This document shows positions 56,289 through 56,360 of a DNA stretch of 56,429 nucleotides, one piece after another. Both the position numbers and the translations under genes were made by a program. The stretch spans positions 1 to 56,429 of IMG/VR virus record IMGVR_UViG_3300020438_003800; one strand, given 5' to 3'. Position 1 is the stretch's first letter. Every line of letters begins with the position of its first letter. Below the pieces are notes generated by a model. The model was not told the DNA's origin. It made no database searches and saw only the letters and a program-made list of their open reading frames with translations. Source of the DNA: a virus (lineage: Duplodnaviria; Caudoviricetes).

Positions 56289-56360
56289 TTATCTAACACT
56301 AAAATACATAGTGATTTCAAATCCAAGTCTTATATTTTCATAAGTTGGTTTGGTCCACAT
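56289..56360 (-). CDS. pqqA: PqqA, pyrroloquinoline quinone precursor peptide (23 aa)
   Basis: Not in ORF track. SD AAGGAGA, then [27 protein letters not shown]; W-x-K-P start and GFE-x-x-x-Y core of PqqA. Confidence 0.9.

Follow-up and report, generated by a model that had tools for sequence, protein, structure and literature searches.

The stretch of DNA analysed here (hereafter the window) is the whole of a linear IMG/VR record of 56,429 bp, for which CheckV gives a completeness of 16%. The following features are found towards its end; L003 and L005 are related contigs with the same gene order.

47624..55558, minus strand: tail-fibre protein of 2644 aa (PHROG tail-fibre families; syntenic in L003 and L005)
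55560..55937, minus strand: A-type iron-sulphur carrier, IscA/ErpA/SufA-like (PF01521, 55.7 bits; TIGR00049, 82.9 bits)
55985..56287, plus strand: convergent Cys-rich ORF (CxxC ... CxxC) of 100 aa, conserved in L003 and L005
56289..56360, minus strand: pqqA coding sequence, 23 codons and TAA (TIGR02107, PF08042, pattern match)
56367..56372, minus strand: Shine-Dalgarno sequence AAGGAG, 6 nt 5' of the pqqA ATG, read from the sequence
56371..56429, minus strand: upstream gene cut by the window end, last 19 codons and stop (matches L003 2499-3725)

The pqqA gene runs from an ATG at 56360-56358 to a TAA at 56291-56289 (72 bp), and its translation is a stand-alone peptide of 23 aa with its own start, within the size typical of such peptides (about 20-40 aa). 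Two HMMs match this peptide over their full model length, TIGR02107 with 48.2 bits (E 6.3e-13; cut-off 20 bits) and PF08042 with 40 bits (cut-off 21.1 bits). Furthermore, a degenerate DNA pattern built on the residues conserved in PqqA was matched once in the window and never in 100 dinucleotide-preserving shuffles. The translation includes the pair Glu15-x3-Tyr19 (E15-I-T-M-Y19), and in the available excerpts of two papers the Glu and Tyr of this Glu-x-x-x-Tyr arrangement are described as the PqqA residues that are cross-linked to form PQQ (PMC7678222, PMC9851590).

The first-pass annotation had proposed a 72-bp PqqA gene with a strong Shine-Dalgarno sequence, tightly packed between other genes, and had recommended a TIGR02107 search on six-frame translations as a check. 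It had placed the ORF correctly, and in the six-frame search of the 56,429-bp record pqqA scored 45.7 bits, again over the cut-off. Its description of the surroundings is also borne out: AAGGAG shares two bases with the TAA stop of the upstream gene (56373-56371), and a single nucleotide separates the pqqA stop from that of the convergent plus-strand ORF at 55985-56287. The same Shine-Dalgarno sequence is kept in L003 and in a further related contig, L004, and reads AAGGGG in the locus L088. A longer frame of 40 aa starts at an ATG further upstream, but the HMMs cover its last 23 residues only, and the part preceding these runs, in a different frame, over the 3' end of the upstream gene. Taken together, the ORF is confirmed as a true PqqA at the level of sequence.

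Transcription signals did not exceed the background. The promoter scan of 55500-56429 gave 4 promoter-like sites compared to 4.5 in shuffles, and the terminator scan of the same stretch gave 0. In the RNA-labelled runs X15 and X16 the stretch 56299-56429 is covered at a depth of approximately 3.7, by contigs that could be derived from DNA; the figures of both runs are nearly identical, and they are possibly one data set filed twice. A third RNA-labelled run, X18, covers 56377-56429 only, with 5 differences and inside a 4.8-kb contig, which probably belongs to another organism's homologue.

The phage genome around pqqA

PHROG assignments in the window include a T4-type DNA polymerase, clamp loader and exonuclease, the metabolic proteins dCMP deaminase, thymidylate synthase, DHFR, MazG and PhoH, and, moreover, endolysin, spanins and baseplate and tail-fibre proteins. 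The 2644-aa fibre gene is 1 nt away from the IscA-like gene, and a phage structural module adjoins the pqqA site. Isolates with genomes of 350-490 kb (Phosso, Atu_ph07, Vibrio 2.275.O, Asteriusvirus-like coliphages) have DNA polymerases with 42-50% identity to that of the window, and the identity reaches 68% for G006, a viral contig of 356,312 bp and 96% completeness. Judged by this polymerase likeness, the window is a fragment of a T4-like jumbo myophage with a predicted genome of roughly 350 kb.

Since pqqA is found within 70 bases of the end of a fragmentary record (the window ends 69 nt past the gene), it might represent a chance frame, host DNA at the contig end or the product of a chimeric assembly, and the first-pass annotation itself had named a host-chromosomal or chimeric flank as fatal to its proposal. 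However, the TIGR02107 E-value of 6e-13 speaks against a chance frame, and the independent contigs L003 and L004 encode the identical peptide at this junction, their DNA differing by a single synonymous change. Past the window end, the sequences of L003 and L005 comprise a tandem pair of paralogues (427 and 408-413 aa), small ORFs and a UvdE-type endonuclease, and L005 additionally carries a glycosyltransferase, a QueD-like gene, a 2OG-Fe(II) oxygenase and a structural-protein PHROG. Phage genes are therefore found on both sides of pqqA, in the window on one side and through L003 and L005 on the other, and a host-derived or chimeric joint is unsupported. Moreover, the stretch 52500-56429 recurs in 14 DNA runs from 12 studies (0.89-0.96 of the sampled words), which are seawater, marine and viral metagenomes, one of them possibly the source sample. 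In the viral-metagenome run X2, a contig of 177 nt at depth 22 spans 56252-56428 with zero differences. An artefact is, hence, a most improbable explanation of the gene.

The window end translates into the same 18 residues as the end of the gene at 2499-3725 of L003. In L003 this upstream gene encodes at full length a protein of 408 aa with a putative signal peptide, one CxxCH haem site and a predicted copper-monooxygenase fold like that of peptidylglycine alpha-hydroxylating monooxygenase (PHM) and dopamine beta-hydroxylase (DBH). It could not be assigned to any Pfam, NCBIfam or PHROG family, Pfam giving sub-threshold matches to cytochrome c and Cu2_monoox_C only, and a sequence search against solved structures returned nothing significant. 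The fold was recognized from a structure model (mean pLDDT 72.8, pTM 0.68), which Foldseek matched to PHM and DBH with an E-value of 1e-8, a probability of 1.00 and a TM of about 0.55 (target). An alignment of 10 phage and bacterial family members is invariant at C38-x-x-C41-H42, M74-P75, H182-H183, H245, H316-x-H318 and M398, and its His/Met pattern is that of the two copper sites of PHM/DBH enzymes. Bacterial members carry an additional N-terminal AhpC/TSA-like domain. On the basis of this model, the phage is predicted to encode two PHM-like copper monooxygenases fused to a cytochrome c part, both of which begin like signal peptides; their family is expanded in the candidate host (see below). 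The site points in this way to an undescribed family of cytochrome c-fused copper monooxygenases.

Whether these proteins act as redox partners of PQQ dehydrogenases was considered, and the idea was dropped. Among 44 loci of the family in four bacterial genomes, 7 are found within 5 kb of a PQQ dehydrogenase compared to 5.1 expected, and 12 compared to 8.5 within 10 kb, which is no clear enrichment. Neither locus proximity nor co-occurrence provided a firm functional link between the PHM-like genes and pqqA. The 100-aa Cys-rich ORF matched no Pfam, PHROG or NCBIfam family. The IscA-like gene, two genes downstream of pqqA, was considered as a provider of the Fe-S clusters of PqqE and likewise rejected: at least 592 viral stretches have a relative of it, with pqqA in 2 of the best 80, and this neighbour is probably functionally unconnected to pqqA.

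pqqA in viruses and in the candidate hosts

A scan of IMG/VR with the degenerate pattern resulted in at least 120 viral loci, and all of those listed encode plausible PqqA peptides. Their flanks comprise 514 ORFs in 302 clusters, and among 134 cluster representatives Pfam detected YqaJ, Sak, ERF, RegA, clamp loader, gp23, gp32, gp5, TerL, capsid proteins, Hsp20 and others. Of the 80 listed viral loci that have more than 1 kb of sequence, 62 show one or more phage hallmark domains; the contexts of these 80 include recombination modules of siphovirus-like type (21), T4-like core genes (18) and other head or packaging genes (13). A tblastn search of 50,697 phage records, which is insensitive for a query of 23 aa, returned 12 records with pqqA, namely nine isolates from Methylophilales/Methylophilaceae hosts, one uncultured Caudoviricetes and two mislabelled entries. 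The latter two, named 'Acinetobacter phage MD-2021a', were discounted; the entry that was inspected carries ppk and pqqB-E and is a contig of bacterial type.

The first-pass annotation had called the gene invisible to ORF callers, and this can be seen in the deposited genomes. In phages Venkman, P19250A and MEP301 pqqA is unannotated, and in Melnitz it is covered by a 'hypothetical protein' on the opposite strand. The exact peptide of the window is absent from 15 billion predicted proteins. The usual minimum gene length of gene callers is 90 nt, which would explain this absence.

The implied novelty of a phage PqqA was, in contrast, overstated. A virus-encoded PqqA, interpreted in the same way, was already published in 2020 (PMC7678222), quite apart from the at least 120 viral contigs found here, and an excerpt of another paper lists viral PqqA among viral phosphorus-cycling genes (PMC13188868). 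The available portions of the Melnitz paper leave pqqA unmentioned and name PQQ only as a medium supplement, and for the Venkman and MEP301 papers the term counts given in search listings are zero for pqqA. New here are the jumbo phage with a gammaproteobacterial type of PqqA, the wide occurrence of the gene, its exact matching to hosts and its presence/absence polymorphism.

In the viral sequences searched, the rest of the pathway was not found alongside pqqA. PHROGs on 57 ORFs of the window, and Pfam on 44 of these, on two further ORFs (the neighbours 55563-55937 and 55985-56284) and on the pqqA frame, revealed neither pqqB-E nor a quinoprotein dehydrogenase, a result that covers approximately 16% of this phage's genome. 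Five more complete pqqA-bearing genomes were therefore of particular value: in Melnitz, Venkman, P19250A, MEP301 and G006, pqqA exceeds the TIGR02107 cut-off in 5/5 (31.6-37.6 bits), while PqqB, PqqC and PqqE over its cut-off were each found in 0/5 and PqqD in 0/4 (Melnitz, Venkman, P19250A and G006). As positive controls, PqqC was found in 4/4 bacterial genomes and PqqD in the bacterial genome G001. A generic radical SAM ORF of 323 aa in G006 was rejected as PqqE, with 22 bits compared to a cut-off of 381. No pqqB-E were seen in the flanks of L003 and L005, and PqqB, C, D and E were absent from the 134 Pfam-searched flank representatives. Finally, BLASTP of all frames of 16 bacterial pqq loci against six-frame translations of the at least 120 viral loci and of L003-L005 matched pqqA alone. 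The earlier observation that no pqqB-E follow the gene therefore extends to its relatives and to the other viral loci, and the gene in the window, which is located neither in nor beside a pqqBCDE operon, is supported as solitary across the sequences searched. Operon location is typical of canonical PqqA and is not a requirement of the family.

A solitary precursor gene could also serve phage enzymes, which would convert the peptide to PQQ or to a different product without recourse to the host pathway. The two upstream PHM-like copper monooxygenases are candidates for such a modifier, as is a putative radical SAM enzyme encoded in the 84% of the genome that lies outside the window. In its favour, pqqA directly follows the PHM-fold gene in the window, L003, L004 and L088, the relative G006 has the 323-aa radical SAM ORF, and at one viral locus (L157) a B12-binding radical SAM gene adjoins pqqA. 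However, the signal-peptide starts of the PHM-like proteins suggest export, whereas PqqA has neither an export signal nor a C-terminal glycine. Moreover, the two genes occur apart: nine relatives carry the PHM-like gene and lack pqqA, pqqA is present in G006, Melnitz and Venkman in the absence of a PHM-like homologue, and among the other listed viral pqqA loci only the flank of L088 has such a gene. The 22 bits of the G006 protein are far from the PqqE cut-off, and a peptide identical or nearly identical to that of the host suits host enzymes. We therefore regard processing by phage enzymes as quite unlikely.

A pattern for the subtype of the window peptide, W.KP.YE.[IV]RLGFE[IV]TMYF, was run on the genomes of 185,579 species and matched 17 loci, of which 15 are labelled as marine Gammaproteobacteria, Pseudomonadales or Pseudohongiella/Pseudohongiellaceae MAGs; the other two are one 'Pseudomonadota bacterium' and one 'Verrucomicrobiales' MAG contig. 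The latter (L207, 5 kb, 37% GC, small ORFs) is probably a misbinned phage. At 16 of the 17 loci an ORF of approximately 304-324 aa follows immediately 3' of pqqA. In the best match, a marine gammaproteobacterial genome (L202) whose PqqA is identical to the window peptide in 22 of 23 positions, this ORF is PqqB (411.6 bits), followed by PqqD and a radical SAM gene, with pqqC nearby and an S9 peptidase upstream. The phage peptide hence has its close homologue inside a pqq operon of the candidate host's metabolism.

Four bacterial genomes (G001-G004), picked solely by their PqqA type, contain 9-14 loci each of the family of the phage 408-aa gene, at identities of up to 55%, compared to a match in 7 of 120 other genomes sampled from the order of G002. 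They also have 11-32 merged PQQ-dehydrogenase loci each, and 2-4 PQQ alcohol-dehydrogenase matches per genome exceed the curated cut-off. Judged from the 23-aa peptide and a single gene family next to it, the window phage probably infects a marine gammaproteobacterium that is Pseudohongiella-like and relies strongly on PQQ. The PQQ-producing host that the first-pass annotation had implied is consistent with this, given the 22/23 identity to the PqqA of a genome that has several PQQ dehydrogenases besides pqqB, pqqC, pqqD and an operon-borne radical SAM gene. A similar correspondence exists in another group. The commonest viral PqqA, present at 24 of the at least 120 loci, is identical to a peptide named as Methylophilaceae/'Ca. 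Methylopumilus' PqqA in public sources and is also found in phages isolated on Methylophilales, which suggests that phage PqqA tracks the PqqA of the host.

Presence/absence polymorphism and selection

The order 408-type gene, Cys-rich ORF and IscA-like gene is common to twelve contigs (the window, L002-L009, L013, L024 and L026). The motif search found pqqA in three of them, i.e. the window, L003 and L004, and not in the other nine. Between the end of the 408-type match and the IscA match lie 346-355 nt in the nine pqqA-less contigs, compared to 435 nt in L003. In L005, the one pqqA-less form aligned base by base, approximately 80 bp are missing, which correspond exactly to the Shine-Dalgarno sequence and the ORF. 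The viral metagenome X2 contains both arrangements, since besides the pqqA contig it has a second contig at depth 28, in which 56286 is joined to 56377 via 10 other letters and which reproduces the form of L005; this comparison was made at 90% likeness, and the pqqA-less form is possibly from a related strain. In L088, a T6A variant of PqqA lies behind a 408-type gene of 94% identity and in front of a different downstream gene. Because it is absent from nine of the 12 syntenic relatives, pqqA is dispensable in these phages. Considering in addition that both forms co-occur in one viral metagenome, any benefit of the gene would be conditional.

These observations are also what would be expected of a passenger, i.e. 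a unit of approximately 80 bp, ribosome-binding site plus ORF, that drifts in and out of phage genomes with little or no effect on the infection. So tiny a unit is easily picked up from hosts, it is present in 3/12 syntenic relatives as a clean indel, forms with and without it occur together in one viral metagenome, and its surroundings vary widely (the 514 flanking ORFs at the at least 120 loci form 302 clusters). However, the gene recurs in unrelated phage types (siphovirus-like at 21, T4-like at 18 and head/packaging contexts at 13 of the 80 listed loci), nine isolates from Methylophilales/Methylophilaceae hosts carry it, and it retains its own strong Shine-Dalgarno sequence.

Furthermore, the peptide is maintained against a high level of silent change. 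The 123 phage pqqA genes compared comprise 112 distinct DNA sequences, and at the 14 codons free of the search pattern pN is 0.225 and pS 0.714, a ratio of 0.32; M1, W2, K4, P5, R11, G13, E15, T17 and Y19 were required by the pattern and are conserved by construction. Synonymous sites are near saturation, yet the peptide is retained, and this codon comparison demonstrates purifying selection on phage pqqA. A drifting passenger would hardly be expected to show such a pattern, and we consider it unlikely that pqqA is nothing else, although somewhat less so than the alternatives of an artefact or of processing by phage enzymes.

Both reactive residues, E15 and Y19, are also retained in the copies that were found independently of the pattern (the window, L003, L004, Melnitz, Venkman, P19250A, MEP301 and G006). 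This bears on a further alternative, in which an excess of PqqA would interfere with the host by tying up PqqD/PqqE or a regulator, or by altering PQQ-linked signalling or defence. In its favour, the part of a metagenome-mining study available describes a PqqA-annotated RiPP family that is co-expressed with defence systems (PMC11118758). But the reactive Glu or Tyr should have been lost in a decoy, whereas the window and the pattern-independent copies keep both, and a peptide identical to host PqqA would simply be processed. Interference is therefore very unlikely.

Proposed role and comparison with known systems

The reading we favour, and hold to be probable to a reasonable though not high degree, is that the window carries a functional, host-derived pqqA on its own, which would feed the PQQ synthesis of the host as a sacrificial precursor. 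It is suggested by the solitary state of the gene, the near-identity to a host-type PqqA, the conserved Glu-x3-Tyr pair, the strong translation signal, the purifying selection and the precedent of orphan pqqA genes in bacteria. The available parts of a study on methylotrophs report that orphan pqqA copies are among the most highly expressed and follow the rate of PQQ synthesis (PMC9851590). The same excerpts also contain a point against a supply role, as overexpression of the whole pqq operon resulted in only modest gains in some bacteria (PMC9851590). The absence of pqqA in nine of the 12 relatives and the lack of a promoter or terminator signal over shuffles were likewise counted against it.

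According to this proposal, transcription of pqqA would accompany or immediately follow that of the upstream periplasmic redox gene, and its own strong ribosome-binding site would direct its translation. PqqD and PqqE of the host would then take up the 23-aa peptide and cross-link Glu15 to Tyr19, PqqB and PqqC would act next, and one peptide would be consumed per PQQ. In this way the phage could supply the one stoichiometric and short-lived input of the pathway at a time when host transcription fails, and PQQ would be kept at its level or raised. The cofactor would serve the many periplasmic quinoprotein dehydrogenases of the host, which could provide energy for the synthesis of a genome of approximately 350 kb. 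We infer the expression of the window pqqA, its processing by host enzymes and any benefit from the features of the locus.

PqqA is an unusual viral cargo, being neither an enzyme nor a structural part and rather the consumable raw material of a cofactor. If phage pqqA indeed feeds host PQQ synthesis, viruses would tune the periplasmic oxidation of alcohols, sugars and methanol in abundant marine and freshwater bacteria, and surveys of auxiliary genes based on called ORFs would undercount. For the uncultured jumbo phage, which is found in many seawater data sets, pqqA also provides a lead to its host. A wider generalization is more tentative, and we would put it at somewhat below even chances: the lone, host-matched pqqA may be a general 'sacrificial-substrate' auxiliary gene across unrelated phages, located here in a host-derived periplasmic redox island that would also include the two PHM-like copper monooxygenases. 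This would span every Methylophilales/Methylophilaceae isolate returned by the search as well as T4-like, siphovirus-like and jumbo phages, and it would make pqqA probably the smallest auxiliary gene, systematically missed by gene callers. If true, the window phage would redirect not only the supply of the cofactor but also periplasmic oxidation in a marine gammaproteobacterium rich in quinoprotein dehydrogenases. The idea is directly testable in the laboratory, since the cultured OM43 and LD28 phage-host pairs all carry pqqA.

The psbA gene of cyanophages offers an analogy, and only an analogy, in which a quickly used-up part of the host's energy metabolism is provided by the phage, so that the pathway keeps running once host expression has stopped. 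However, the psbA product is a protein subunit that is reusable though short-lived, whereas PqqA is a sacrificial substrate of 23 aa.

A closer parallel is the viral population VP_266 from Lake Baikal, for which virus-encoded PqqA is described in the portion of the report available (Coutinho et al. 2020, PMC7678222). There, too, a lone PqqA gene in an uncultured aquatic phage was read as boosting PQQ for a host quinoprotein dehydrogenase, but the predicted host of VP_266 is a freshwater methylotroph and the virus also carries a methanol dehydrogenase. The window, in contrast, is a marine jumbo fragment with a Pseudohongiella-like PqqA type and two adjoining cytochrome c/PHM-like genes, and has no dehydrogenase gene in the 56 kb seen. 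The phages of Methylophilales/Methylophilaceae (Venkman, Melnitz, MEP301, MEP401/402 and P19250A) share with it a solitary pqqA over the TIGR02107 cut-off, in their case in complete genomes. They differ in their PqqA subtype, which is 55-63% identical to that of the window, and in their genomes, which are small sipho- or podovirus-like and, at 141 kb, T4-like, and not jumbo. Finally, the orphan pqqA genes of methylotrophs, as portrayed in the excerpts of PMC9851590, are likewise located away from pqqB-E, are expressed and track PQQ synthesis, and they represent the same principle of raising the dosage of a consumed precursor, although they are chromosomal, host-regulated and non-viral.

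Records and neighbours of pqqA

In the cultured Methylophilales phage Melnitz (MZ577097.1), the pqqA frame scores 31.6 bits with the curated PqqA model TIGR02107. Two tRNA genes flank this frame, and a 'hypothetical protein' annotated on the opposite strand overlies it, which is probably a mis-call.

2961-3066 of locus L227, site of the Melnitz pqqA frame (+)
2142-3644 of L157 (IMG/VR contig, 96,452 bp), B12-binding radical SAM gene, 501 aa

The latter gene immediately follows a viral pqqA on its downstream side and is the sole radical SAM neighbour of pqqA among the viral flanks scanned. 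The record CAKLQF020000010.1 (L231), labelled 'Acinetobacter phage MD-2021a', contains ppk, pqqB, pqqC and pqqD together with pqqA, and a radical SAM gene annotated as moaA_2 occupies the pqqE position beside pqqA. This record looks like a bacterial chromosome; hence, its matches should not be counted as phage. The contig WTHG01000117.1 (L207, 5003 bp), assigned to a Verrucomicrobiales MAG bin, carries a solitary pqqA of the gammaproteobacterial subtype surrounded by small ORFs only, at a GC content of 37%. We regard it as probably a misbinned phage fragment.

Other genes of the window

The following further genes of the window lie on the minus strand.

55560-55937 (-), A-type Fe-S carrier (IscA/ErpA/SufA-like), TIGR00049, 82.9 bits
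27952-28299 (-), 7Fe-type ferredoxin (Fer4 and DUF3470)
39906-43307 (-), tail-fibre/baseplate-connector-like protein, 1133 aa, with a subtilase domain (Peptidase_S8, 106 bits)
15880-19012 (-), ATP-dependent protease/chaperone-like gene (phrog_4871, 748 aa, two AAA domains), then DnaJ
1831-3659, 13012-13752, 20175-21695 and 30891-31229 (-), sugar-nucleotide genes

Relatives of the A-type carrier were found in at least 592 viral stretches, and this gene is therefore common among marine phages in its own right. The ferredoxin gene adjoins those of a 2OG-Fe(II) oxygenase and DHFR/thymidylate synthase. The DnaJ is full, with J domain and C-terminal domain, and forms with the phrog_4871 gene a phage-borne chaperone pair. 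The sugar-nucleotide set, which comprises an epimerase, a phosphomannomutase-like protein, two cytidylyltransferases, a Nol-like carbamoyltransferase and a phosphoheptose-isomerase-like protein, suggests glycan or DNA modification chemistry.

Tandem genes upstream of pqqA

Two paralogous genes stand in tandem upstream of pqqA in L003, a viral contig syntenic with the window, and also occur in L005, a syntenic contig without pqqA.

1244-2527 and 2499-3725 of L003, tandem pair
7155-8438 and 8410-9651 of L005, tandem pair
56371-56429 of the window, 3' end only of such a gene

The paralogues (427 and 408-413 aa) are 26% identical, and both have an N-terminal hydrophobic leader and a single CxxCH haem site. 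They belong to no family in Pfam, PHROG or NCBIfam. The candidate host lineage, Pseudohongiella-like marine gammaproteobacteria, has 9-14 loci of this family per genome, and the members there possess an AhpC/TSA-like domain in addition. The C-terminal part, in which HH, H, HxH and M are invariant, has a predicted fold that matches peptidylglycine alpha-hydroxylating monooxygenase (PHM) and dopamine beta-hydroxylase.
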